64,000 nucleotides of DNA from Flavobacterium sp. (GTDB taxonomy: Bacteria > Bacteroidota > Bacteroidia > Flavobacteriales > Flavobacteriaceae), in NCBI GenBank assembly GCA_021740105.1, contig JAIPAM010000001.1:196239-260238 (forward strand), given 5' to 3'. Position numbers and translations under genes: made by a program. Under the pieces are notes generated by a model, which saw only the letters and a list, made by a program, of their open reading frames with translations, was not told the DNA's origin and did no database searches. Positions within the stretch are counted from its first letter, which is position 1, and every line of letters starts with the position of its first letter. Shown here one piece after another: positions 3,691 through 15,348 of the stretch.

Positions 3691-4556
3691 TATTTTTTAG
3701 AAGATAAATAAACTCCAATTAATATTATAAAAGCACCTAAAAACTGAATTGGCGTAAGCATTTCGTTATCTAATAATCCCCAGAAAAATGCTACAATTGG
3801 AATTAAATAGGTTACCGATGTCGCAAAAACAGGAGAGGAAATTTGAATTAATTTAAAGAAAATAATGTTTGCAATTCCAGTTCCAACAACCCCCAAAATT
3901 ATAATAAAGAGAATTGAATGTTGTGTTTTTTCCAAAACTAAAACATCAGAAAACCCAGATAAATACAAAATCAAACAAGCCGGAAGCAACATTACAGCAA
4001 AATTTCCAGTAGAAATGGTAAGTGGCGATAAATCGGATAGGTATTTCTTGATTAAATTCACATTAATTGCATAACAAATTGAAGCTATAATTACCAAAAT
4101 TGCATAGTAATAATTTTGTTCTGGATGATGAAAAGCACCATTAAAAATGAGAAGCATACTGCCAACTAATCCGATAATAACTCCAAACAACTGACTTCTT
4201 TTGAAATTTAATTCAAAGGCTAAAACCCCCAAAATCAATGTGTTTAATGGCGTTAAGGAATTAAGAATAGCGCTTACTGAACTATCCATTTGAGTTTGGG
4301 CAATAGAAAAAAGAAATGCAGGGACGAAGGTTCCAAACAAAGAGGTTATTACAATATATTTCCATTTCCCTTGTGGGATATTTGGCAAGGTTTTAAATCC
4401 AATAGCTAAGAGAAATACTGCGGCAAAAATAATTCGCAATGAACCCAATTGAAATGGTGTTAATCCAACTAATCCTCTTTTAATAAGTATAAATGAACTA
4501 CCCCAAATTAAGGCTAGTACTAACAAAAAAAACCATTTAGTGTGCTTAGAATTCAT
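3690..4556 (-). CDS. DMT/EamA family transporter
   Basis: About 10 TM segments; LALIWGSSF and SVTYLIPIVA EamA-type motifs. Confidence 0.9.
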   Translation of the reverse strand: MNSKHTKWFFLLVLALIWGSSFILIKRGLVGLTPFQLGSLRIIFAAVFLLAIGFKTLPNIPQGKWKYIVITSLFGTFVPAFLFSIAQTQMDSSVSAILNSLTPLNTLILGVLAFELNFKRSQLFGVIIGLVGSMLLIFNGAFHHPEQNYYYAILVIIASICYAINVNLIKKYLSDLSPLTISTGNFAVMLLPACLILYLSGFSDVLVLEKTQHSILFIIILGVVGTGIANIIFFKLIQISSPVFATSVTYLIPIVAFFWGLLDNEMLTPIQFLGAFIILIGVYLSSKK

Positions 4557-4676
4557 AGTTGTAGTTTATTATGCAAATTTTGTAATAATTTTAAGAATAT
4601 TGCCTTTAAATTTTAGTTATTTTTGTGAAAGTACTTAAACAAGTTTTTAAATTTAACCCTATTTAATACTAAAATT

Positions 4677-5060
4677 ATGCGTTTTAATCCCTCATTTTTG
4701 GCAATTGCACTTTCTAGTTTATTGTTTTTTAGTTGTAAAAAAACGGAGGTTTCTCAAACTACAACAACAGAAAAAACTGTAAAATTAAATTCGAAATCTA
4801 TTGCTGCAAAACCTCAAATGGCTACTTTTACTATTGAAGGAATGACTTGTGCGGTTGGATGTGCGAAGACAATTCAAGAAAAACTAGCATCAATGGATGG
4901 AATTCAAAGTGCAACTGTAGATTTTGACAAGAAATTTGCAACAGTAGAATTTGACGCATCAAAACAAACACCGGATCTTTTATTAAAAGCAGTTCAAGAA
5001 ACGGGAGACGGTAAAACTTATGTGGTTTCAAATATGAAATCGGAACCAGTAAAAAATTAA
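4677..5060 (+). CDS. Heavy-metal-associated (HMA) domain lipoprotein
   Basis: Lipobox LLFFSC; IEGMTCAVGCAKTI metal loop; HMA-like beta-alpha pattern. Confidence 0.82.
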   Translation: MRFNPSFLAIALSSLLFFSCKKTEVSQTTTTEKTVKLNSKSIAAKPQMATFTIEGMTCAVGCAKTIQEKLASMDGIQSATVDFDKKFATVEFDASKQTPDLLLKAVQETGDGKTYVVSNMKSEPVKN

Positions 5061-5061
5061 T

Positions 5062-5565
5062 TTATTCCGATTTTAATTTTTCAATAACCCCATTTTCAAT
5101 TTTTTCTTTGATTTTTATAACCTCATCTAAATTGTCATTTGGAACAGTCATTGACAATACATAATGGGCAATTTTCCAAGTATTTCCTTGCTTAATTAAT
5201 ACTCCGGAACCTCTACAAATTTTCATTTGAGTATCTAATAACTCATCGAACCACGCCGTGTTTTGTGTTTTATCAAAATAGATGTTTCTTTGTAAACATT
5301 TAAAATCCCAAGCTTTTCCCTTATCAAAATAGGGCTTTGAGAAAGCTTTAAAAGCATCCAATTGCCAGTTTTCTGTTGCATCTGTTCCAATAAAAACGCC
5401 ATTCGTAGTCATGTAGGAAAAATAGTTATCAAACTCCGTATTTGCAGCCGCTTTATGCCAAGAATCAAGTGTGGTATTAATCTTTTTTTTATCGCTATCA
5501 GTGTTTTGAGAAAATGATTTTGATCCCAATAGCAAGATGCAAAATAGTAGTATCGCTTTTTTCAT
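5062..5565 (-). CDS. Secreted NTF2/SnoaL-like family protein
   Basis: Signal peptide; LDSWHKAAA, FIGTDATENW, AWFDELL, WKIAHYVLS typical of Bacteroidota NTF2-like proteins. Confidence 0.8.
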   Translation of the reverse strand: MKKAILLFCILLLGSKSFSQNTDSDKKKINTTLDSWHKAAANTEFDNYFSYMTTNGVFIGTDATENWQLDAFKAFSKPYFDKGKAWDFKCLQRNIYFDKTQNTAWFDELLDTQMKICRGSGVLIKQGNTWKIAHYVLSMTVPNDNLDEVIKIKEKIENGVIEKLKSE

Positions 5566-5754
5566 TTTATTTATATTAAATTAGTTTCAAATATAATAGC
5601 TTTAACTTAAATTTCACTTATATTGGTCTGAAAACAAATACAATAAATAATTTACTATAAAAATTAATGTTTAAAGATTTTAAAACACAACTAGTTTAAA
5701 AAAATAATACAAGAAAAATTAACATTTTTCGTCTAAAAACAAAATAAAATACTT

Positions 5755-7362
5755 ATGAAAAAAATAACCCTCGTTTTATTTTGCTTAATTGGCAATTTCG
5801 TTTTTTCACATACCATCAATTATGAAAATGTTGTATTGAGACATTGGTCTATCGAAAAGCAACACCAATTTATTGATGGAACTTTTATGATATATAAAAA
5901 TGGTACCGTATTTATTGAAGATGCCAATAATAAAATTTCTAAAATTCCCTTTTCAGATTTATCAAATGAAGATCAAAAATTTGTAACAAGCAAAAACAGT
6001 TGGGTAAAAAATTTGAATACTATTACACCTGAAAAAAAGGAAAGTACTCAAAATATTTTTGATTTTAAATTTTGGATAATCCTTTTCTCATTAATCGCTT
6101 TTGGATATTATATCTACACTATTTCTGATAGAAAAAAACTAAAATTTCTCTATCCTGTTTTGTTTCTAGGGATACTTACTTCTTTGTATGGTTTTACAAA
6201 AAAAGCAATATCTACAACCGATCCTGCATTTCTTACTTCGGCATTTTCACAATTTGCTTCTACAGTTAGTACCACTTATGATGCCAATTTTTTCTATGTG
6301 AATTCAACTGGAATTCCAAACCACACGATGATGGTAGGAATTTCAAATCGAGGATGGCAACAACAAGTTCCAACTTCAAAATGCTATATCAATTCAAATC
6401 ATTGGACGATTCCTTTAAATCCAGTAATTGCTGCAACACCTGTTCCTGTTTCTTCAACACATTTCTTGAAAGGCGCTATTGCGATGGCAGTTAATGGAGT
6501 TCCCATTTTTAATTATCATACTAATACTGGAGTGGATAGTTTTCTTGACGGACAACTCGATAACTATGGAGGACATTGTGGAAGAGGCGACGATTATCAT
6601 TACCACACCGCGCCATTGCATTTAATCACTTTAGGTCAAGCATCAGCTACTTTACCCATTGCTTTTGGACTCGACGGATACGCTGTTTATGGAAATTTAG
6701 AACCTAATGGAACTGCAATGACAACACTTGATGCCAATCATGGGCATTATGGAACCAACGGAGTTTATCATTATCACGGTACCGCCGCTGCTCCTTATAT
6801 GATCGGAAATATGGTTGGAGTGGTTACGGAAGATGCCAATTTGCAAATTATTCCTCAACCACAAGGAACGGCAATTAGAACTGAAAATTGGACGCCCCTG
6901 GCTGGTGCCTTGATTACTTCTTGCGTTGCCAATGCTAACAATGGGTTCAACACCGCCTATTCTTTAAACGGCGTTTCAGGTTATGCAACAAATTATACTG
7001 CAACTGTGGCTGGATTATACACTTTTCAATATGTTACTCCTACAGGGACTACCTCAACGAATTATAACGGCCCGGCTCAATGTACAGTCCCAAATTTAGG
7101 TTTTGACGAAATAGCCTATTTAGACAATGCATTTACTATTTATCCAAATCCAACAAGCGATGTTTTAAATATTAAATTACGAAAAGACATCAATGAAAAT
7201 GATATTCAAGGGGTTTCAATTTATGATTTAAAAGGACGTTTAGTATCTAAAACCCCCGATTTCAATTCAAATATTGACATAAAAAATCTCTCTAAAGGAT
7301 CTTATGTTGTGAAAATTGAATTTTTGAATTACCTGATTTCTAAAAAAATAATGGTGAAATAA
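5755..7362 (+). CDS. YHYH-domain protein with N-terminal SHD1-like domain, TM hairpin and T9SS type-A CTD
   Basis: Two YHYH motifs (DDYHYH, GVYHYH); GxAxNGVP and FGLDGYAVYG YHYH-family motifs; IYPNP...KKIMVK CTD. Confidence 0.85.
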   Translation: MKKITLVLFCLIGNFVFSHTINYENVVLRHWSIEKQHQFIDGTFMIYKNGTVFIEDANNKISKIPFSDLSNEDQKFVTSKNSWVKNLNTITPEKKESTQNIFDFKFWIILFSLIAFGYYIYTISDRKKLKFLYPVLFLGILTSLYGFTKKAISTTDPAFLTSAFSQFASTVSTTYDANFFYVNSTGIPNHTMMVGISNRGWQQQVPTSKCYINSNHWTIPLNPVIAATPVPVSSTHFLKGAIAMAVNGVPIFNYHTNTGVDSFLDGQLDNYGGHCGRGDDYHYHTAPLHLITLGQASATLPIAFGLDGYAVYGNLEPNGTAMTTLDANHGHYGTNGVYHYHGTAAAPYMIGNMVGVVTEDANLQIIPQPQGTAIRTENWTPLAGALITSCVANANNGFNTAYSLNGVSGYATNYTATVAGLYTFQYVTPTGTTSTNYNGPAQCTVPNLGFDEIAYLDNAFTIYPNPTSDVLNIKLRKDINENDIQGVSIYDLKGRLVSKTPDFNSNIDIKNLSKGSYVVKIEFLNYLISKKIMVK

Positions 7363-7385
7363 TAATTTCATTTTAAACCCATTTT

Positions 7386-8606
7386 ATGACAAAATACTTC
7401 TATTTATTGTTATTATTTCCAATTTTTTCATGTGCGCAATACCTTGGAACAGGATCGATTACTCAAGGTTTAGCAACAGCCACGTCAGGTAATCTTTATT
7501 CTTGTACAAATGGTAGAATTGCAGCTTTAGGTACTATTACTGCTACCGATAATACCGTTTGGACTGTTCCTGCAGTAACCAATTTTACCAATAATTTATT
7601 TCCATTTGCGTCCAATTTATACAATGAATGTACTGGTAATTTATATGCAAATTCAACTGCAGCTTTAGCGGCTTTGAATGGTTCCGATATTGTAACTGTT
7701 GATACCAATGGAGAAATAATTACGGCTTATATTTTTGCTGATAATTATTTTGAAATGTACATCAATGGCGTTCCTGTAGGAAAAGATAATGTTCCATTTA
7801 CTCAATTTAATTCCAATATTGTCCGATTCAAAGTCAATCGCCCGTTTACAATTTCGATGCTTTTAGTGGATTGGGAAGAGCGTTTAGGTGTTGGAGGAGA
7901 AACCAATGGAGGCTTTAATTATCACTGTGGTGATGGTGGTATGGTAGCTGTTTTCAAGGATGCTAGTAACACTATAATTGCAAAAACAGGAAGCGATTGG
8001 AAAGCACAAACTTTTTATACTGCACCTATAATGAATTTATCGTGCCCTACTGAAAGTGGTACTTCACGCCTTTCGGCAAATTGTAGCACGGCAGATTCTA
8101 ATGCTGGAACAGCCTATTATGGATTGCATTGGGCAAGACCCTCAAACTGGACATTGGCAACGTTTGATGATTCTTCTTGGCCTGCCGCTACCACGTTTAC
8201 AAACGCAACAATAGGCGTTGATAATAAACCAGCTTATACTAATTTTACCACTATTTTTGATGATGTTTCCAATGATGCTCAGTTTATTTGGAGTAAAAAT
8301 GTAATTTTAGACAACGAAGTTATTGTTAGAAAAACAGTTTCTTCTTTGTCGGTTTATGATTTTGAAAACGTAAATTCAAAAATTAATATTTATCCGAATC
8401 CAACAAAAAATCAATTTAATTTAGATTATGATGCTGCTGTTTTTCCAATAAATAAAATTCAAATAATAAATACTTTTGGCGAATTACTATTTGAAACAAA
8501 TACCATTTCAAATTCCATTAAATTTGGTACAATTCCATCGGGAATGTATTTTGTAAAAATTATTTCAGACAAATTTGAGATAACAAAAAAATTAATAGTT
8601 GAATAA
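7386..8606 (+). CDS. T9SS type-A cargo protein with an uncharacterised beta-sandwich (lectin/CBM-like) domain
   Basis: Signal peptide; ADNYFEMYING...SDWK...FDDSSWPAA...AQFIW pattern; IYPNP...TKKLIVE CTD. Confidence 0.7.
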   Translation: MTKYFYLLLLFPIFSCAQYLGTGSITQGLATATSGNLYSCTNGRIAALGTITATDNTVWTVPAVTNFTNNLFPFASNLYNECTGNLYANSTAALAALNGSDIVTVDTNGEIITAYIFADNYFEMYINGVPVGKDNVPFTQFNSNIVRFKVNRPFTISMLLVDWEERLGVGGETNGGFNYHCGDGGMVAVFKDASNTIIAKTGSDWKAQTFYTAPIMNLSCPTESGTSRLSANCSTADSNAGTAYYGLHWARPSNWTLATFDDSSWPAATTFTNATIGVDNKPAYTNFTTIFDDVSNDAQFIWSKNVILDNEVIVRKTVSSLSVYDFENVNSKINIYPNPTKNQFNLDYDAAVFPINKIQIINTFGELLFETNTISNSIKFGTIPSGMYFVKIISDKFEITKKLIVE

Positions 8607-8619
8607 ATTGCCATTTGAA

Positions 8620-9828
8620 ATGAAAAAAAAATTACTTTTTGGATTCCTACTTCTAAATTCAACTTTGTTTTTTGGTCAAAGTGTTTCTAAAACTATTCGG
8701 TTATTGCCCGACACTGGACAAACCCAAAGCTACACTACTACATTTGGCGAAGACCATGATTATTTGATAAACACGCCTTCTTATACCAATAATAACAATG
8801 GAACAATTACCGATAATGTTACCGGATTGATGTGGCAACAAGTTGATGGTGGTGAAATGACTTTTGAAAATGCTATCACATATTGTAATAATTTGTCTTT
8901 AGGCGGTTTTTCAGGCTGGCGATTGCCAACTCCAACAGAAGCCTATAGCATTCTGAACCATCAAAGTTCGAACCCAGCAATCAATACCACTTTTTTTACT
9001 TTGACTACAGCGGAATATTGGTGGACAAGTGTTTTTGAAAATAATTCTACCACGAAAGTTTGGTGTACAAATTCAGGCGGTGGAATTGGAAATCATCCAA
9101 AAGCAGAAACCATAAGTGCCGGTGGAACAAAAAAATTCCATGCTAGAGCAGTTCGAAATATAACCACTCCAACAACCATTACCAATCATTTTACAGATAA
9201 TGGGGATGGGACTATAACCGATAATTTGACCCAGTTGGTTTGGCAAAAAATTCCGAATGCAAATATATTCACTTGGGAACAAGCAATAAGTTATGCAGAA
9301 GGATTAACTATAGGTTCAATTTCTGATTGGCGATTGCCGAACATCAAAGAATTGCAATCGATAAACAATGAATTGGCAACAAACCCGTCTGTTTTTGCAC
9401 CTTATTTTTCAAGTGTTGGCGTTCATAATTATTGGTCTTCAACTACATTGCCAAACCAAAATTTAAGTGCTTGGTATTGGAGTACCGCTTTTGGAATTAC
9501 AACTTACAGTGCTAAAACAGGTTCAAATTATGTACTTTGTGTAAGAGGAAATCCTTCACTTTCTTTAAACACTATTGAACCTCATACATCAATAAAAATT
9601 CATCCAAATCCATCTTCTCATTTTGTTTCCATTTCATTTCCACGCTACACAACTTCAGCAAAAATTGAAATCGTCGATACAATGGGAAAAATAGTTCTAA
9701 GCAAAGAAATTGTCGTCAATTCTAACGAATACTTATTAGACACGGAAGGAATTTCAGGAGGAATCTATTATTTATCAATCATAAATGGAAATAATAAGAA
9801 TACGTATAAAATCATAATGAAAAAATAA
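8620..9828 (+). CDS. Tandem DUF1566 (Lcl C-terminal) protein with T9SS type-A CTD
   Basis: Two copies of the NxDGTITDNxTxLxWQ...WRLPxxxE pattern; IHPNP...YKIIMKK CTD; ATG 8620 gives a signal peptide. Confidence 0.87.
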   Translation: MKKKLLFGFLLLNSTLFFGQSVSKTIRLLPDTGQTQSYTTTFGEDHDYLINTPSYTNNNNGTITDNVTGLMWQQVDGGEMTFENAITYCNNLSLGGFSGWRLPTPTEAYSILNHQSSNPAINTTFFTLTTAEYWWTSVFENNSTTKVWCTNSGGGIGNHPKAETISAGGTKKFHARAVRNITTPTTITNHFTDNGDGTITDNLTQLVWQKIPNANIFTWEQAISYAEGLTIGSISDWRLPNIKELQSINNELATNPSVFAPYFSSVGVHNYWSSTTLPNQNLSAWYWSTAFGITTYSAKTGSNYVLCVRGNPSLSLNTIEPHTSIKIHPNPSSHFVSISFPRYTTSAKIEIVDTMGKIVLSKEIVVNSNEYLLDTEGISGGIYYLSIINGNNKNTYKIIMKK

Positions 9829-11426
9829 TGAAAAAAATAGTTGTACTATTATTTCTATTGGTAATTAGTCATTCCAATTTTGCGCAACAACACAATGTGA
9901 TTTTTGTTATAGCAGATGATATTGGAGCCGACTATTGTGGATTTTATTCCAATTATACACAGTATAGCCCCATTCTTGATACCATCGCAATGCCAAATGT
10001 TAGGCGTTTATTAAGCAGAGGTGTTCGATTTAAAAATGCGTGGTCAAATCCAGTGTGCTCGCCTACTCGTGCTGGAATGATGACGGGAAGATATAGCTTT
10101 AGAACAGGAGTTGGAAATGCCATTGGAGGTGGCACTACATCGGTATTGAATACCAATGAAATTAGTATTCCACAATTATTAAATGTGTATTCTCCAAATG
10201 GAATTTCAAAAGCATTAATAGGAAAATGGCATTTACAATTGCCGTCGGTCGCTAATTATAGCAATCCAAATATAATGGGGTTTAACCATTACGAAGGAAG
10301 TCTATCGGGTGGAATTAACGATTATTTCGATTGGCAAAAAATTACAAATGGAGTCGCCTCTACCAATACAAATTACGCTACAACAGAGGTGGTAAACAAT
10401 TCTATTTCTTGGATTTCAGCACAGCCAACTACAAAGCCGTTCTTTCTTTGGATGGCATTCAATGCGCCACACAGTCCCTTTCATTTACCACCAGCTGGAA
10501 TGTATTCGGATACCACTTTGAGTGGAACAGCGGCAGATATTTCGGCTAATCCAAAAAAATATTATAAAGCTATGGTTCAAGCCATGGATCGTGAACTTGG
10601 TCGTTTATTTGATTATTTACAAAGTAGTGGAAAATGGGCAAATACAGACATCGTTTTTATTGGGGATAATGGAGATGATCCTGCAATTAATCAAGGTTCT
10701 GGAAGTGCAAAAGGGAGTGTATATCAGAAAGGGGTAAGTGTGCCTTTTATTATTTCAGGACCAACAGTTGTAAATCCAAACAGAAGTAGTGATGCGCTTG
10801 TTAACACCGTCGATTTATTTGCAACGGCATTAGAATTATTTGGATATTCCAACTGGCAATCGCAAATTCCTTCAAATAGACCAGTGGATTCAAAAAGCTT
10901 AATGCCGATATTATTAAATACTGCAACAGCTGTTAGGCCATGGGCATTTACAGAGGTTTTCAAAGATACTCCTACATCGGGAGATGGGAAAGCAATGAGA
11001 AATACGGGGTATAAATTGATAAAATTTGACGATGGTACAGAAAAATTTTTCAATTTAACGACGAATCCAACAGAAACGATAAATCAAAATTTACTTCTAG
11101 GAACTTTAACTACTACACAAATTTCCAATTACAATTATTTGTGTACCGAAATGACAAATTTAGTTGGAGGAACTTCGTTTTGTAACGCTTTAGGAGTTAA
11201 TGATGTAGGGCGACAAATTAATGTAAGTCCAAACCCATTTCATAATTTTATCTCCATAAAATCGGGTTCAGGAAATGAGAATTACAAACTGTATTCTAAT
11301 TTAGGCCAACTTATTTTCGAAGGAAAAGATATTGAAAATCAAGATTTTTCTTCGTTAGCAAATGGAATTTATTTCTTAAAAATAATGGATAAATCAACTT
11401 CAACTATCAAACTGATTAAAGAATAA
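9828..11426 (+). CDS. Cys-type (formylglycine) sulfatase with T9SS type-A CTD
   Basis: IADD, CSPTRAGMMTG signature, GKWHL, PHSPFH, GDNG; VSPNP...IKLIKE CTD; start overlaps the upstream stop (TAATG). Confidence 0.92.
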   Translation: MKKIVVLLFLLVISHSNFAQQHNVIFVIADDIGADYCGFYSNYTQYSPILDTIAMPNVRRLLSRGVRFKNAWSNPVCSPTRAGMMTGRYSFRTGVGNAIGGGTTSVLNTNEISIPQLLNVYSPNGISKALIGKWHLQLPSVANYSNPNIMGFNHYEGSLSGGINDYFDWQKITNGVASTNTNYATTEVVNNSISWISAQPTTKPFFLWMAFNAPHSPFHLPPAGMYSDTTLSGTAADISANPKKYYKAMVQAMDRELGRLFDYLQSSGKWANTDIVFIGDNGDDPAINQGSGSAKGSVYQKGVSVPFIISGPTVVNPNRSSDALVNTVDLFATALELFGYSNWQSQIPSNRPVDSKSLMPILLNTATAVRPWAFTEVFKDTPTSGDGKAMRNTGYKLIKFDDGTEKFFNLTTNPTETINQNLLLGTLTTTQISNYNYLCTEMTNLVGGTSFCNALGVNDVGRQINVSPNPFHNFISIKSGSGNENYKLYSNLGQLIFEGKDIENQDFSSLANGIYFLKIMDKSTSTIKLIKE

Positions 11427-11999
11427 ATGACCAGTTTAGAATCCCTTTATACTTATTTTCAACTAGGTTTCACGCATGTTATTCCTTTAGGTTTTGATCA
11501 TATACTTTTTATATTAACTTTGTTTTTTTTGAGTTCCAATATAAAAACGATGTTAATTCAATGTTCCGTTTTTACACTCGCACATAGTTTTTCATTGGCT
11601 TTAGCTGCATCAGGATTGATCATTCCTAATGCTAATATCGTAGAGCCTTTAATTGCTTTATCCATTTTATTTACGGCAATTGAAAACATCGTTCACAACA
11701 AAATAAACCCTTGGCGATTGGTTCTAATATTTGGCTTCGGATTAATCCACGGATTAGGATTTGCGAAAGCGCTAAATGAAATTGGAATGCCAAAAAATCA
11801 ATTTTTTAGTTCGCTTTTGTCATTTAATATTGGAGTTGAAATGGGTCAGGTTACCATAATAGTAGCGGCCTATTTTATAATCAGCAAGTGGTTTAGTAAA
11901 AAGATTTGGTATAAAGAAAGGGTTGTTTATCCAATTTCTTCGGTTATTGCCTGTATCGCTTTATATTGGGTAATAGAAAGAATTTTATTTCCAAATTAG
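11427..11999 (+). CDS. HupE/UreJ family membrane protein
   Basis: His motifs GFTH...GFDHILF, FTLAHS, FGLIHGLGFA, FNIGVE; hydrophobic; ATG directly after the sulfatase stop. Confidence 0.88.
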   Translation: MTSLESLYTYFQLGFTHVIPLGFDHILFILTLFFLSSNIKTMLIQCSVFTLAHSFSLALAASGLIIPNANIVEPLIALSILFTAIENIVHNKINPWRLVLIFGFGLIHGLGFAKALNEIGMPKNQFFSSLLSFNIGVEMGQVTIIVAAYFIISKWFSKKIWYKERVVYPISSVIACIALYWVIERILFPN

Positions 12000-13867
12000 T
12001 TTTTTACAATCAATAATGGAATGCCAATTTTATGGCGTAATTTATCTACGGTAGTTCCGAAAAGAAGGTCTTTAAATCCTGTGTGTCCATGGGTTCCCAT
12101 TACTAAAACATCAAAATCACCCTCATTTATAATTTTTGGAATTACAGAATTTGGTTTTCCAAACCCTAATTTAGTTGTTACTTTGAAACCTTTATTAGTC
12201 AACATTTCTTGGTATTCTTTCAATAATTTTTCATCTATTAAAGTTTCATGGTCATCGATGTTTTCTCCATAAACCAAGGCGCCAACGGTTTCAACTATAT
12301 GAATTAAAGTGTAATTAGCTTTTATTCCACCAAGTTCAAAAGCGCTATTTATTGCAATTTCATCTGCATCTGTAAAGTCAACTGACACGGCAATATTCTT
12401 TTTACTATACGTTTCGGAAGGCTTAAATTTTAAAACTAAATTGTGAGGAGAATGGTTTTCAATATTGTTTTTTGATTTTGAAAAAAACGGTTGGAAAACA
12501 ATGTAAATTAATAAAATTAAAAAGCCAACCGCCAACGGAACCACTGTTAACCACAAAACAATAGGATTTTCCGATATTTCCATCCAACCTTGAATTTCGT
12601 TGAAAACCAATTTTGCATTCAGCGAAACTATAATTGTAGCCACAAGCCATGAAGCAATTTGAGTGATTTTAGAAATTTGAAAATCTTTCATTTTCGATTT
12701 ATCACTAACAAAATGAATCAGTGGGATAATAGCAAAACCCAATTGTAAACTCAAAATTACCTGACTCAAAATCAGCATTTTTCCGGTTACGCTTTCGCCA
12801 AAAATAGAAATTACAATCACGGCTGGTACAATGGCTATCAATCGCGTTATAATGCGTCGAACCCAAGGTTGAATCCGTAAATTCAAATAACCTTCCATAA
12901 TAATTTGACCCGCTAAAGTTCCTGTAATTGTCGAACTTTGTCCTGCGGCTATTAGCGCAATGGCGAATAATATAGGCGCCCATTGAGTGCCTAACATTGG
13001 TTCTAACAATCGGTGTGCATCTTGAATTTCGGCCACTTCGAACAAGCCATTTTTGTAAAAAGTAGCGGCCGCCAAAATTAAAATGGCTGCATTTACAAAA
13101 AAAGCCAAGTTCAAGGCAATCGTACTGTCTATAAAATTATATTTCAATGCTTGTTTTATTCCAGCTTTGCTTCTATCAAATTTTCGGGTTTGAACCAGAG
13201 AAGAATGCAAATATAAATTGTGGGGCATTACCGTGGCGCCAATAATTCCAATCGCAATGTAAAGTGCTTCTTCGCTCGGCAAACTCGGAATCAAACCCTT
13301 CAATATACTTCCAACTTCTGGTTGCGCAAAAATCATTTCGAAAACAAAGGAAAACCCAATAATAGCTACCAAAGCAATAATAAAAGCTTCCATTTTTCGG
13401 ATGCCTTTATTGATTAAAAACAGCAATAAAAAAGTGTCCAAAACAGTAATCAAAACACCCTCCAAAAGCGGGATTCCAAAAAGCAAATTCAATCCAATTG
13501 CCATTCCCAAAACCTCAGCCAAATCGCACGCTGCAATTGCTATTTCGGCTAAAAAATAAAGTATGTAATTAATGAATTTTGAATAGGTTTCTCTAGAGGC
13601 TTGCGCCAAATCGCGTTGGGTAACAATTCCTAAACGAGCGCTCAAACTTTGTAAAAGCAACGCCATAATGTTGCTCATTAATAAAACCCACAGCAAAGCA
13701 TAACCAAACTGACTTCCGCCGGCCAAATCGGTTGCCCAATTTCCAGGATCCATGTAACCCACACTAATTAAATAAGCAGGTCCAAAAAAAGCAAGCAGTT
13801 TTCTAAATCCCGTTTTTTTATTTTGAGTTGGAACCGATTGGTTTACTTCTTCAAGTGATTTGCTCAT
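11996..13867 (-). CDS. mntH: Nramp divalent metal (Mn2+) transporter with C-terminal universal-stress-protein domain
   Basis: GYMDPGNW and GATVMPHNLYLHS Nramp signatures; C-terminal VAVDF-like...VMGTHGHTG...GTTVDKL USP motifs. Confidence 0.93.
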   Translation of the reverse strand: MSKSLEEVNQSVPTQNKKTGFRKLLAFFGPAYLISVGYMDPGNWATDLAGGSQFGYALLWVLLMSNIMALLLQSLSARLGIVTQRDLAQASRETYSKFINYILYFLAEIAIAACDLAEVLGMAIGLNLLFGIPLLEGVLITVLDTFLLLFLINKGIRKMEAFIIALVAIIGFSFVFEMIFAQPEVGSILKGLIPSLPSEEALYIAIGIIGATVMPHNLYLHSSLVQTRKFDRSKAGIKQALKYNFIDSTIALNLAFFVNAAILILAAATFYKNGLFEVAEIQDAHRLLEPMLGTQWAPILFAIALIAAGQSSTITGTLAGQIIMEGYLNLRIQPWVRRIITRLIAIVPAVIVISIFGESVTGKMLILSQVILSLQLGFAIIPLIHFVSDKSKMKDFQISKITQIASWLVATIIVSLNAKLVFNEIQGWMEISENPIVLWLTVVPLAVGFLILLIYIVFQPFFSKSKNNIENHSPHNLVLKFKPSETYSKKNIAVSVDFTDADEIAINSAFELGGIKANYTLIHIVETVGALVYGENIDDHETLIDEKLLKEYQEMLTNKGFKVTTKLGFGKPNSVIPKIINEGDFDVLVMGTHGHTGFKDLLFGTTVDKLRHKIGIPLLIVKN

Positions 13868-13870
13868 AAT

Positions 13871-14524
13871 TTATTGTAAATTTATATATAAATTTTCTGC
13901 TATTTTATTGGAAATAGAAATAGTCTTTGCGTTCAAAATAATTGTTAATGACTTATCAAATTCTTCACAGGAGATAACTTTTATTGTTGAACCTAAATAA
14001 ATATTTTGTTTGTCTAAATATTGCAAAAACACAGCTGACGAATTTTTAACCCCAACACATAAATAATCAGTATTTAATGTCGCTTCAGACAATAAAAATT
14101 TGTCTATTTTCTCTATTTCCCCCTTTGCATTAGGAATTGGATCTCCATGGGGATCAAACATTGGAAATCCAAGAAACGCTTCCAACTGATCTACTAATTT
14201 TTCAGATCTAATGTGTTCTAATTCTTCTGCAATTTCATGAACTTCATCCCAAGAAAAATTTAATTTATCAACTAAAAACACCTCCCATAATCTATGTTTT
14301 CTAACTATCATTTTTGCCGTATACAATCCTTTTTTAGTCAATGTTACCCCTTGGTATTTTTGATAAGAAACTAGGTTTTTTTCCGAAAGCTTTTTTAACA
14401 TGTCTGTTACTGAAGACGCTTTGGTTTCTATCATTCCTGCGATTGCATTCGTGTTTACACCTTTTGGAGAAACTAACGATAAATGATAAATTACTTTGAT
14501 ATAATTTTCTTCTGACACAGTCAT
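13871..14524 (-). CDS. mntR: DtxR/MntR family metal-dependent transcriptional regulator
   Basis: SEENYIK, VRKHRLWEVFL, AEELEH, DPHGDPIP; C-terminal FeoA/SH3-like domain; directly upstream of mntH. Confidence 0.92.
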   Translation of the reverse strand: MTVSEENYIKVIYHLSLVSPKGVNTNAIAGMIETKASSVTDMLKKLSEKNLVSYQKYQGVTLTKKGLYTAKMIVRKHRLWEVFLVDKLNFSWDEVHEIAEELEHIRSEKLVDQLEAFLGFPMFDPHGDPIPNAKGEIEKIDKFLLSEATLNTDYLCVGVKNSSAVFLQYLDKQNIYLGSTIKVISCEEFDKSLTIILNAKTISISNKIAENLYINLQ

Positions 14525-14541
14525 GATAAACATTTTTTTTA

Positions 14542-14549
14542 CAAATGTA
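14542..14549 (-). promoter_or_regulatory. -7 promoter box (TACATTTG) of mntR-mntH
   Basis: CAAATGTA on + equals TAnnTTTG on -, just upstream of the mntR start. Confidence 0.6.
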
Positions 14550-14578
14550 ACAATTAATTTTATTTAGATTAAAATAAT

Positions 14579-14596
14579 TTTTAGATTTGTCTAAAA
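14579..14596. promoter_or_regulatory. Candidate MntR/DtxR operator overlapping the -7 box (TAGATTTG, 14582-14589) of the divergent porin gene
   Basis: Perfect 7-4-7 palindrome TTTTAGA-TTTG-TCTAAAA; a second half-site TTTAGATT at 14563-14570. Confidence 0.65.
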
Positions 14597-14604
14597 TTAG
14601 TACT

Positions 14605-15348
14605 ATGAAAAAAAGTGTCATTTTCTTTATGATGTTTGTGGCTCAAACTTTTGTGGCTCAAATTAACGAACCAATTCAAGCGGACAGACCAGACCAAACT
14701 GAAACACCGGCAATTGTTCCAAGAGGAATGTTTCAAGTAGAAACTGGATTTACTTTTCAGAAAAATGATGAAATTAGCAAAACCAATACTTTACCAACTG
14801 CTTTATGGAAATATGGTGTCAATGAAAATTTTGAGTTGAGATTAATCACCGAATTTATATCAGAAAAAATTGACGAAAATACACAAGAAGGTTTAGCGCC
14901 AATATTTATAGGTTTTAAAGTAAAATTGGCCGAAGAAAAAGGCATTGTTCCCAAAACATCTTTTATTGCACATATTGGTCTCCCGAATGCTGCTTCCACA
15001 AAATACAAAACTGATTTTTATGCCCCCGAATTTAGATTGGTAATGCAGCACACTTTATCAAATAAATTTTCTTTAAGTTATAATTTGGGAGCCGAATGGG
15101 ACGGATTTTCTGCTGAACCAACTTTTATTTATACATTAACAACAGGTTATTCAATAACAAAAAAATTAGGATCTTATATTGAATTATTTGGTTTTTCTCC
15201 ACAAAACCAAAAAACCAATCATAATTTTGATGGCGGAATAACCTATTTGATAAACGATAATTTTATGTTAGATTTGTCTTCGGGCTTTGGTATTACAAAA
15301 AATGCTCCAAAAAATTATTTTGCAATAGGATTCTCCTTCAGAATATAA
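14605..15348 (+). CDS. Outer-membrane beta-barrel 'transporter' (Phenol_MetA_deg-like family)
   Basis: Signal peptide; DRPDQTE...VPxGxFQVETG N-terminal motif; alternating beta-strand pattern ending GFSFRI. Confidence 0.8.
   Translation: MKKSVIFFMMFVAQTFVAQINEPIQADRPDQTETPAIVPRGMFQVETGFTFQKNDEISKTNTLPTALWKYGVNENFELRLITEFISEKIDENTQEGLAPIFIGFKVKLAEEKGIVPKTSFIAHIGLPNAASTKYKTDFYAPEFRLVMQHTLSNKFSLSYNLGAEWDGFSAEPTFIYTLTTGYSITKKLGSYIELFGFSPQNQKTNHNFDGGITYLINDNFMLDLSSGFGITKNAPKNYFAIGFSFRI

Follow-up and report, generated by a model that had tools for sequence, protein, structure and literature searches.

The five-gene operon and its conservation

We analyzed a 64,000-nucleotide stretch of Flavobacterium sp. 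DNA (assembly GCA_021740105.1, contig JAIPAM010000001.1, positions 196,239 to 260,238), hereafter the window. Positions 5755-11999 of the window carry five co-oriented genes. Four encode predicted cargo proteins of the type IX secretion system (T9SS), the first being a YHYH-family protein with a transmembrane hairpin, termed YHYH_TM, while the fifth encodes the inner-membrane permease HupE. A promoter of the type recognized by extracytoplasmic function (ECF) sigma factors is predicted in front of the first gene. The features of the region are:

5710-5735, + strand: predicted ECF-type promoter CAAGAA-N14-CGTCTA, ending 19 nt before the ATG of the first gene
5755-7362, + strand: YHYH_TM gene, 535 aa, with YHYH (PF14240) and Por_Secre_tail
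5809-5811, + strand: codon of His19, the predicted first mature residue of YHYH_TM (A, S or G, then H, at this junction in homologues)
6064-6204, + strand: transmembrane hairpin of YHYH_TM with the basic loop SDRKKLK, from the alignment and AlphaFold2 (AF2)
7386-8606, + strand: gene for a beta-rich T9SS cargo, accessory, 406 aa, Por_Secre_tail only
8620-9828, + strand: Lcl_C gene with two Lcl_C/DUF1566 domains, core, 402 aa from the ATG
9828-11426, + strand: S1 formylglycine sulfatase gene with a T9SS C-terminal domain (CTD), accessory, 532 aa, PF00884
11427-11999, + strand: HupE_UreJ_2 inner-membrane permease gene (HupE), 190 aa, PF13795

Along the run, the genes are spaced by 23 nt, 13 nt, a 1-nt overlap and 0 nt. 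The open reading frame (ORF), Pfam and NCBIfam calls agreed with the orientation, spacings and domains given in a preliminary description of this DNA, as well as with its four type-A T9SS tails. Por_Secre_tail was found in all four cargo proteins by Pfam/NCBIfam profile search, and TIGR04183 (T9SS type A) matched all four with 34.9-45.5 bits against a cut-off of 23. The best tail was that of YHYH_TM (55.9 bits, PF18962). GldK, the only T9SS component searched for, is encoded in the host genome (576.6 bits, cut-off 350), which comprises 2.19 Mb in 15 contigs. Signal peptides were called by eye from the N-termini, and the three cargos other than YHYH_TM had no internal hydrophobic segment. The permease matched PF13795 over profile positions 1-154 of 156 (149.5 bits, cut-off 24.5, 7.8e-44), and Lcl_C matched PF07603 in two stretches (163.7 bits, cut-off 34.9, 2.4e-48). 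An in-frame TTG at 8599 is an alternative start for Lcl_C that gives an 8-nt overlap with the preceding gene; the ATG at 8620, followed by a standard signal peptide, is the more probable of the two.

Homologues were scanned with one genome per species, which gave 137 relatives of the first protein, of which the best 80 loci were kept; synteny was determined by tblastn and clustering of all ORFs. The same gene order was found in Flavobacteriales, Saprospiraceae and Chitinophagaceae, at identities as low as 44-50%. Because this order recurs in dozens of genomes, far beyond chance, the five genes are a genuine conserved Bacteroidota operon, and the module put forward in the preliminary description holds as a conserved unit. 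Among 52 loci with at least 5 kb after YHYH_TM, the gene was followed by Lcl_C in 40, by HupE in 23, by the beta-rich protein in 18 and by the sulfatase in 14. Seen from HupE (79 loci), Lcl_C was located immediately upstream in 48 and YHYH_TM upstream in 36. The common order around HupE was ECF sigma factor, anti-sigma factor, Metal_resist, (Metallophos x2), YHYH_TM, (beta-rich), Lcl_C, (sulfatase), HupE, and a frequent compact form was sigma, anti-sigma, sensor, (phosphatase x2), YHYH_TM, Lcl_C, HupE. The core is thus YHYH_TM, Lcl_C and HupE, with the sulfatase and the beta-rich protein as accessories.

The module is patchy. Of the 401 genomes sampled across the phylum 11 had it, with 7 of 178 genera represented, and the 15 further genomes listed from the same genus all lacked it. 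This rarity of the whole set, together with a membership that differs among genomes, would fit T9SS cargo genes and an unrelated permease being mere neighbours with no common function. We regard such an arrangement as very improbable, since the order is kept across families even at low identity, the spacing is tight, a single promoter in front is common to a copper-type operon, and the N-termini of YHYH_TM and HupE are complementary (see below).

At least 2,819 relatives of YHYH_TM were found at E <= 1e-20 in a large protein collection, a lower bound as 8,000 candidates were scored, and any names they carried were generic. The closest public records were freshwater Flavobacterium-type metagenome bins; cultured carriers were Flavobacterium luteum NBRC 112527 (L110) and Flavobacterium sp. 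SUN046 (L133). Some bins with implausible names (Rhizobium sp. Q54, Candidatus Nitrotoga sp., Chitinophaga pinensis, Rhodanobacter; loci including L011, L014, L003, L031, L105 and L170) had the genes on Flavobacterium- or Hymenobacter-like contigs. These records look like mislabelling, not cross-phylum transfer. In one Flavobacterium bin a second YHYH_TM-like gene with 23% identity was located directly upstream of the full-length copy (L027:3934-7181).

The sulfatase matched PF00884 with 148.1 bits (4.5e-43). Its CSPTR motif lies in CSPTRAGMMTGR, and DDIGAD, GKWH and DNGD were all present, so that the enzyme looks catalytically complete. Its nearest solved relatives were several different glycan sulfatases, all at about 1e-30, and the sulfatases of the clusters form one orthologous group with 57-67% identity. 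A canonical formylglycine-generating enzyme (FGE) is encoded elsewhere in the genome (FGE-sulfatase domain protein, C10:280097-281017, 281 bits). The 2.19-Mb genome has ten sulfatase-domain genes; eight are located in two C10 clusters (~151-155 kb and 274-291 kb), one of which adjoins the FGE gene. A role of Lcl_C as an FGE-like sulfatase maturase, with copper from YHYH and HupE, was considered and dropped, given the canonical FGE in a sulfatase-rich locus and the accessory status of the sulfatase.

The preliminary description took a sulfated substrate as the theme of the module. The genes would then specify an extracellular complex in which a sulfated glycan is bound by Lcl_C and the beta-sandwich protein and desulfated by the sulfatase, YHYH and HupE doing no more than supplying or handling a cofactor metal. 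The intact-looking sulfatase with its one recurrent orthologous group, and a genome with ten sulfatases and an FGE, are compatible with this, as is Lcl of Legionella, which binds sulfated glycosaminoglycans via a DUF1566-containing domain (PMC11162425). However, the theme fits poorly with the sulfatase following YHYH_TM at the fewest loci (14, vs 40 for Lcl_C and 23 for HupE). The 38 loci of 52 that lack it mostly keep Lcl_C and HupE. No SusC/SusD pair, glycoside hydrolase or lyase was among the families recurring at the loci; the recurring genes were of copper and redox types. The Lcl_C fold is C-type-lectin-like, so that DUF1566 is no longer wholly uncharacterised as had been stated, but the paper that solved it calls the generic role of DUF1566 unclear (PMC11162425), and nothing here links the lectin-like fold of this Lcl_C to a sulfated ligand. 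Altogether, we find a sulfated-glycan complex highly unlikely.

The orthologues of the beta-rich protein averaged 64% identity (alignment A2). Its AF2 model was poor (pLDDT 65.8), the fold search was uninformative, and no family beyond the CTD was assigned. Possible ligands of Lcl_C and the beta-rich protein would be a surface polymer or an organic carrier of metal.

The shared promoter and the copper-type operon

Upstream of the YHYH_TM genes we found CGTC[TCA]AA about 20-40 nt before the ATG, with C[CA]AGAA 14 nt earlier. By its sequence, the layout C[CA]AGAA-N14-CGTC is that of a typical ECF -35/-10 promoter. A looser form of the -10 element was present upstream of 16 of 44 YHYH_TM genes compared to 3 of 371 unrelated genes, and the element also precedes sigma, anti-sigma, MbnP and oxidase genes. 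The full pattern had 59 matches in 2.2 Mb (159 related loci). Fifty-eight of the 59 were on the cluster strand, and 49 were within 200 nt upstream of cluster genes, namely YHYH_TM (19), the anti-sigma factor (15), the ECF sigma factor (8), multicopper oxidase (3), Lcl_C (2), MbnP (1) and Metallophos (1).

In the host genome itself the N14 form matched four times. The three intergenic matches were the one at 5710-5735 of the window and those at C10:70524 and C10:73257, which precede the anti-sigma-like gene and the oxidase gene of a copper-type operon. The fourth match, C10:303568, falls within a gene region, has no ORF following it and was taken as chance. Judging from this shared promoter, the window operon is very probably under the control of the C10 sigma factor. 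No riboswitch or other RNA element was found in 4400-14700 at E <= 0.1, and a scan for sigma-70 promoters and terminators gave counts not above the shuffled expectation.

The C10 operon is located outside the window (C10:69989-78416) and comprises nine genes in the order ECF sigma factor, 88-aa membrane protein, 239-aa protein, MbnP, MbnH, multicopper oxidase with CTD, redoxin and two YHYH proteins with CTD. MbnP is a copper protein matured by MbnH, and its WxW motif has been defined (PMC11951088); the C10 MbnP retains this motif. The two C10 YHYH paralogues matched the profile over its full length (~1e-53). The 239-aa protein, in the position of the sensor, has a C-terminal tail rich in Pro, His and Arg (HRPPPPPRDGDHPRGPREGNRPPPPPHWNEEGHGRPGD...) that may bind metal or span the periplasm.

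In distant genomes the five-gene set was found to be the tail of a longer co-oriented cluster, the members of which were checked against Pfam. These were an ECF sigma factor, a small membrane protein, a Metal_resist/LTXXQ (CnrX-like) protein, MbnP (2.2e-40), the MauG-like di-haem peroxidase MbnH (CCP_MauG, 1.1e-52), a multicopper oxidase (Cu-oxidase_3/_2) with a T9SS tail, two AhpC/TSA-type redoxins, a full-length YHYH protein with a T9SS tail, two purple-acid-type metallophosphoesterases with tails and an arylsulfotransferase-like propeller with a tail. At least one copper-type member was located upstream at 18 of the 42 loci with at least 8 kb of upstream sequence.

A regulon that unites a T9SS multicopper oxidase, an arylsulfotransferase-like propeller, a sulfatase and purple-acid-type phosphatases, carried mostly by freshwater metagenome bins, might serve the secreted oxidation of phenolic or humic matter. 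The sulfatase, the arylsulfotransferase-like protein and the phosphatases would unmask phenols, the laccase-like multicopper oxidase and the di-haem peroxidase would oxidise them, and YHYH_TM and HupE would do no more than secure copper for the oxidase; alternatively YHYH itself, the core fold of which is unsolved and has many invariant His, Asp and Cys, would be a new copper oxidase. This explanation is quite unlikely in our view. The hydrolases are the least conserved members, MbnH in company with MbnP is a protein-maturation pair and not a free peroxidase, and the data point to no substrate. In addition, N-terminal-His domains of the Ang type were found to have no meaningful oxidase activity (PMC12537917).

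The same gene content could also be that of a defence regulon against excess copper or nickel/cobalt. A CnrX-like sensor would free the ECF sigma factor, secreted His-rich YHYH and the oxidase would sequester and oxidise the metal outside the cell, and anions released by phosphatase and sulfatase would precipitate it. HupE and the N-terminal-His domain would then only load secreted copper proteins, as thought for CopC/CopD. The triad of ECF sigma factor, short anti-sigma factor and Metal_resist (PF13801) protein heads many clusters and is one that we take to resemble the metal-excess sensor CnrYXH. Classic resistance factors include multicopper oxidases of the CueO/PcoA type. Phosphatases are a recurring part of the cluster, and an HMA-domain lipoprotein is encoded upstream in this genome. 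Still, we judge defence against excess unlikely. No efflux pump (P-type ATPase, RND) was among the families recurring at the loci, MbnP and MbnH stem from copper-acquisition operons, and for carriers with small genomes from freshwater metal scarcity would be more plausible than excess. The characterised HupE/UreJ proteins are all importers, and the PF13795 fusions were proposed as uptake devices (PMC12537917).

The N-termini of YHYH_TM and HupE

YHYH_TM is predicted to consist of a signal peptide (residues 1-18), His19, an SHD1-like domain (~19-88), a transmembrane hairpin (104-150), a divergent YHYH domain (~155-370), an Ig-like beta domain (~375-445) and a type-A CTD (462-535). The YHYH match (47.9 bits, cut-off 25, 2e-12) covered profile positions 1-110 of 193, and this partial coverage marks the protein as a divergent member of the family. 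In an alignment of 48 homologues (A1) H19 and W31 were invariant, as were nine His in all and the motifs DYHYH and VYHYH. The YHYH domain is strongly conserved and rich in His, Asp and Cys (GGHCGRGDDYHYH, DANHGH, GVYHYH); for its core, neither sequence nor fold searches of the PDB gave a match. Directly after the hydrophobic signal, A, S or G was followed by H in every homologue examined (here VFS/HTINYEN, with the slash at the cleavage site, which was predicted by eye). An invariant N-terminal His is a hallmark of histidine-brace metal sites. Because of the nine invariant His and the invariant N-terminal His, YHYH_TM is very probably a metal protein, as the preliminary description had supposed. 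The YHYH family has been called uncharacterised, and a metal site of three His has been predicted for it (preprint 10.64898/2026.10.18.759936).

The AF2 model of YHYH_TM (pLDDT 72.8) has helices at 104-123 and 126-150, and its N-terminal domain resembles the SHD1 small barrel 2hbp (Foldseek TM 0.74, target-normalised). The hairpin was present in all 24 homologues displayed and ends in LY[GS]F, followed by TTDPxF. With this hairpin at 104-150, YHYH_TM departs from the periplasm-soluble state of a T9SS cargo. The protein would either be cut after the second helix, in the LY[GS]F...TTDPxF region, or stay tethered.

Invariant residues of HupE among 22 orthologues were H17, D24, H25, Q45, C46, H53, E73, H108, E138 and Q141. 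HupE is the likely membrane metal handler, in line with the earlier proposal. The window HupE starts 13 residues before GFTHVIP and has neither a signal peptide nor an N-terminal His. We compared the N-termini of 100-odd HupE genes. Those adjoining YHYH_TM or Lcl_C start 8-15 residues before GFTHVIP and likewise lack both, and the same was found for all 49 non-redundant HupE genes beside YHYH_TM. HupE proteins elsewhere (Hymenobacter, Flavipsychrobacter, Taibaiella and others) have a signal peptide followed at once by His (SP-His HupE), with junctions such as AAA/HVLNTDLSKLSR, SA/HTINYVLDK and QA/HVINYELEK. Thirteen SP-His HupE were counted by pattern and none was beside YHYH_TM. The pattern counts of 0 / 13 / 49 / 7 gave a Fisher p of 2e-9, the pattern having overlooked seven SP-His rows seen by eye. 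In a maximum-likelihood tree the SP-His HupE form one well-supported clade of 29 rows, none of which adjoins YHYH_TM or Lcl_C.

The mature start of YHYH_TM, HTINYENVV, repeats the H-[TV]-I-N-Y opening of part of the SP-His clade, and this common start, though short, is suggestive. The simplest reading of these N-termini would be a split device, in which one operon encodes both the permease, which has no capture His, and a second, hairpin-anchored protein that carries it.

At one locus outside this arrangement, in Hymenobacter sp. BRD67 (L174:4055-11470), an SP-His HupE is preceded by a gene for a 759-aa secreted protein that starts SSHREAPLIADDP, and then by one for a tetratricopeptide repeat protein. 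The 759-aa protein has an apparent T9SS tail, read from the sequence without a profile scan, and a TonB-dependent-receptor-like gene is located downstream of HupE. The locus looks like another partner set for the same permease family.

Proposed function and comparison with known systems

The reading we prefer, with modest confidence, is that of a split 'anglerase'-HupE/UreJ-2 device within a copper-linked, ECF-controlled and T9SS-dependent regulon of two loci. The window operon would be the distal part of this regulon, under the one ECF sigma factor that is encoded on C10 with anti-sigma-like and sensor-like proteins, ahead of MbnP, MbnH, the oxidase, the redoxin and the two YHYH proteins. The regulon would handle a transition metal, most likely copper, in the envelope and extracellularly. 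Signal-peptide cleavage would expose His19 at the N-terminus of the small SHD1-like domain, which the transmembrane hairpin would keep at the inner membrane, and the N-terminal His would take a metal ion in the periplasm and pass it to the HupE_UreJ_2 permease. The YHYH domain, Lcl_C and the beta-rich protein would be T9SS cargos that bind the metal, or an organic carrier of it, on the cell surface or further out. The sulfatase, and elsewhere the two purple-acid-type phosphatases and the arylsulfotransferase-like protein, may be optional secreted hydrolases of the regulon. Gene content, conservation, the common promoter motif, the invariant His and the complementary N-termini are observed; the identity of the metal, import over sequestration, the contact of the hairpin protein with HupE and the fate of the hairpin-bearing cargo are parts of this scheme that we infer.

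More tentatively, the single gene at 5755-7362 might supply both ends of an outside-to-cytoplasm metal relay, either by cleavage or by spanning the periplasm; we hold this to be possible at best. By cleavage, a cut after the second helix would leave the His1 'angler' beside the truncated HupE, and the freed His-rich YHYH would be exported by the T9SS as an extracellular copper-capturing protein. Uncut, the protein would reach across the periplasm, the hairpin lying next to HupE and the CTD docked at the T9SS. With such a relay, Bacteroidota would possess a protein-based, T9SS-dependent way to acquire trace metal that has a dedicated ECF sensor as its switch and is linked to MbnP/MbnH, and the YHYH fold would define a new metal-binding class.

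Several points weigh against the split copper device. HupE is absent beside YHYH_TM at more than half of the loci. The complementarity between the N-terminal His and HupE is a single evolutionary event, because the SP-His HupE form one clade and thus one split of the tree, so that the Fisher p is too strong; the HTINY motif that the two have in common spans just five residues. The capture domain is SHD1-like and not an Ig-like sandwich as in Ang-1, and we know of no export route for a T9SS cargo with an inner-membrane hairpin. The C10 protein in the sensor position (C10:70827-71546 = L096:7828-8547) had no Pfam match. The scheme gives Lcl_C, the beta-rich protein and the sulfatase only presumed functions. 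It is only the neighbouring genes that point to the metal; CnrX-like sensors and HupE proteins are classically associated with nickel/cobalt, and mntH is next door in this genome. The multicopper oxidase and the CnrX-like sensor fit metal excess at least as well. Finally, the site predicted in YHYH is a zinc site (preprint 10.64898/2026.10.18.759936).

MbnP/MbnH, the multicopper oxidase, the redoxins and the chemistry of an N-terminal His make copper the most likely metal. Nickel/cobalt (precedents of HupE and CnrX), zinc (the predicted YHYH site) and manganese (adjacency of mntH) are alternatives that we do not favour. Uptake is favoured because of the permease family and MbnP/MbnH, and a response to excess because of the sensor type and the multicopper oxidase; we place uptake ahead, if not by much.

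The genes flanking the operon are:

4677-5060, + strand: HMA lipoprotein gene, upstream flank
5062-5565, - strand: SnoaL_3 gene, between the HMA gene and the operon
11996-13867, - strand: MntH-Usp gene, convergent downstream flank
13871-14533, - strand: MntR gene, downstream flank

The preliminary description had the HMA gene and mntH-mntR correctly as flanks and overlooked the SnoaL_3 gene. The HMA lipoprotein has MTCAVGC (C-x3-C) in place of the usual M-x-C-x-x-C, and its gene travels with the operon in close relatives only. MntH (Nramp) carries a C-terminal universal-stress-protein domain, the fusion being 623 aa, and the 3' end of its gene overlaps the convergent end of hupE by 4 nt. The mntH-mntR neighbourhood was restricted to close relatives. 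A manganese system was rejected, as this adjacency is found in close relatives only, the genes converge on the operon, and they have no promoter in common with it.

YHYH (PF14240) is widespread in bacteria, diatoms and other eukaryotes, and the operon offers the family a testable job. It would unite YHYH, MbnP/MbnH outside methanotrophs and HupE/UreJ-2 devices in one regulon with a recognisable promoter, and the cultured carriers make the question testable at the bench. If the proposed function is true, YHYH_TM and its companions would be the first T9SS cargo to serve trace-metal handling. An inner-membrane hairpin on a protein with a fully conserved T9SS export tail is also a puzzle of cell biology. 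The first interpretation of this DNA missed the link to the ECF/MbnPH/oxidase regulon, the shared promoter, the architecture of N-terminal His and hairpin in YHYH_TM, and the way this complements a truncated HupE. It was right that no characterised system has this composition, as far as the literature searched goes: publications on YHYH, on MbnP/MbnH in Bacteroidetes, on HupE/UreJ and copper, and on T9SS multicopper oxidases contained no description of the system.

Several known systems share parts of its logic. CopC/CopD with a PcoA-type oxidase, and YcnI/YcnJ of Bacillus, presumably follow a like scheme of a periplasmic copper binder with N-terminal His, an inner-membrane permease and a multicopper oxidase within a single regulon; unlike the operon described here, which has T9SS-exported cargo and a hairpin-tethered binder, CopC/CopD is, we assume, built from unrelated families. 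CnrYXH of Cupriavidus metallidurans is, as we understand it, similar in that an ECF sigma factor, a short membrane anti-sigma factor and a Metal_resist (PF13801) sensor head the cluster, and a further likeness is a promoter that appears to be auto-regulated. The output presumably differs, consisting here of secreted binders, an oxidase and a permease and not of an RND efflux pump. In the host genome, unlike in CnrYXH, the protein in the sensor position is without a Pfam match.

The third protein of the operon resembles Lcl of Legionella (PMC11162425) in the DUF1566/Lcl_C C-type-lectin-like domain, which it has twice. It differs in having no collagen repeat or trimerising stalk, and in its predicted secretion by the T9SS and not the type II secretion system.

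The combination of MbnP (PF20243, WxW) with a MauG-like peroxidase is like MbnP/MbnH of Methylosinus trichosporium OB3b (PMC11951088, PMC3621798). The pair is predicted to be co-regulated with the window operon and is contiguous with it in other genomes. Unlike methanobactin operons, no methanobactin genes or MbnT-type receptor were among the families recurring at the loci, and the pair is located outside the window and tied to T9SS cargos and an ECF sigma factor.

The closest comparison is with the anglerase (Ang-1/Ang-2)-HupE/UreJ-2 devices, which have been described only as fusions (Franco Cairo et al., Nat Commun 2025; PMC12537917). In these, PF13795 permeases are fused to N-terminal-His domains that bind Cu2+ with a Kd of 60-75 nM and for which a role in supplying the permease was proposed; metallophosphatases often lie next to Ang-2 (PMC12537917). 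The present operon differs in that the His domain is on a separate protein, encoded four genes upstream and not fused to the permease. This protein has its own membrane hairpin, followed by a YHYH domain and a T9SS tail, its His domain is an SHD1-like small barrel compared to an Ig-like sandwich in anglerases, and its carriers are Bacteroidota compared to Pseudomonadota and Actinomycetota. Both have in common a PF13795 permease, an extracytoplasmic domain with an invariant His as first mature residue, metallophosphatase neighbours and a copper-linked context.

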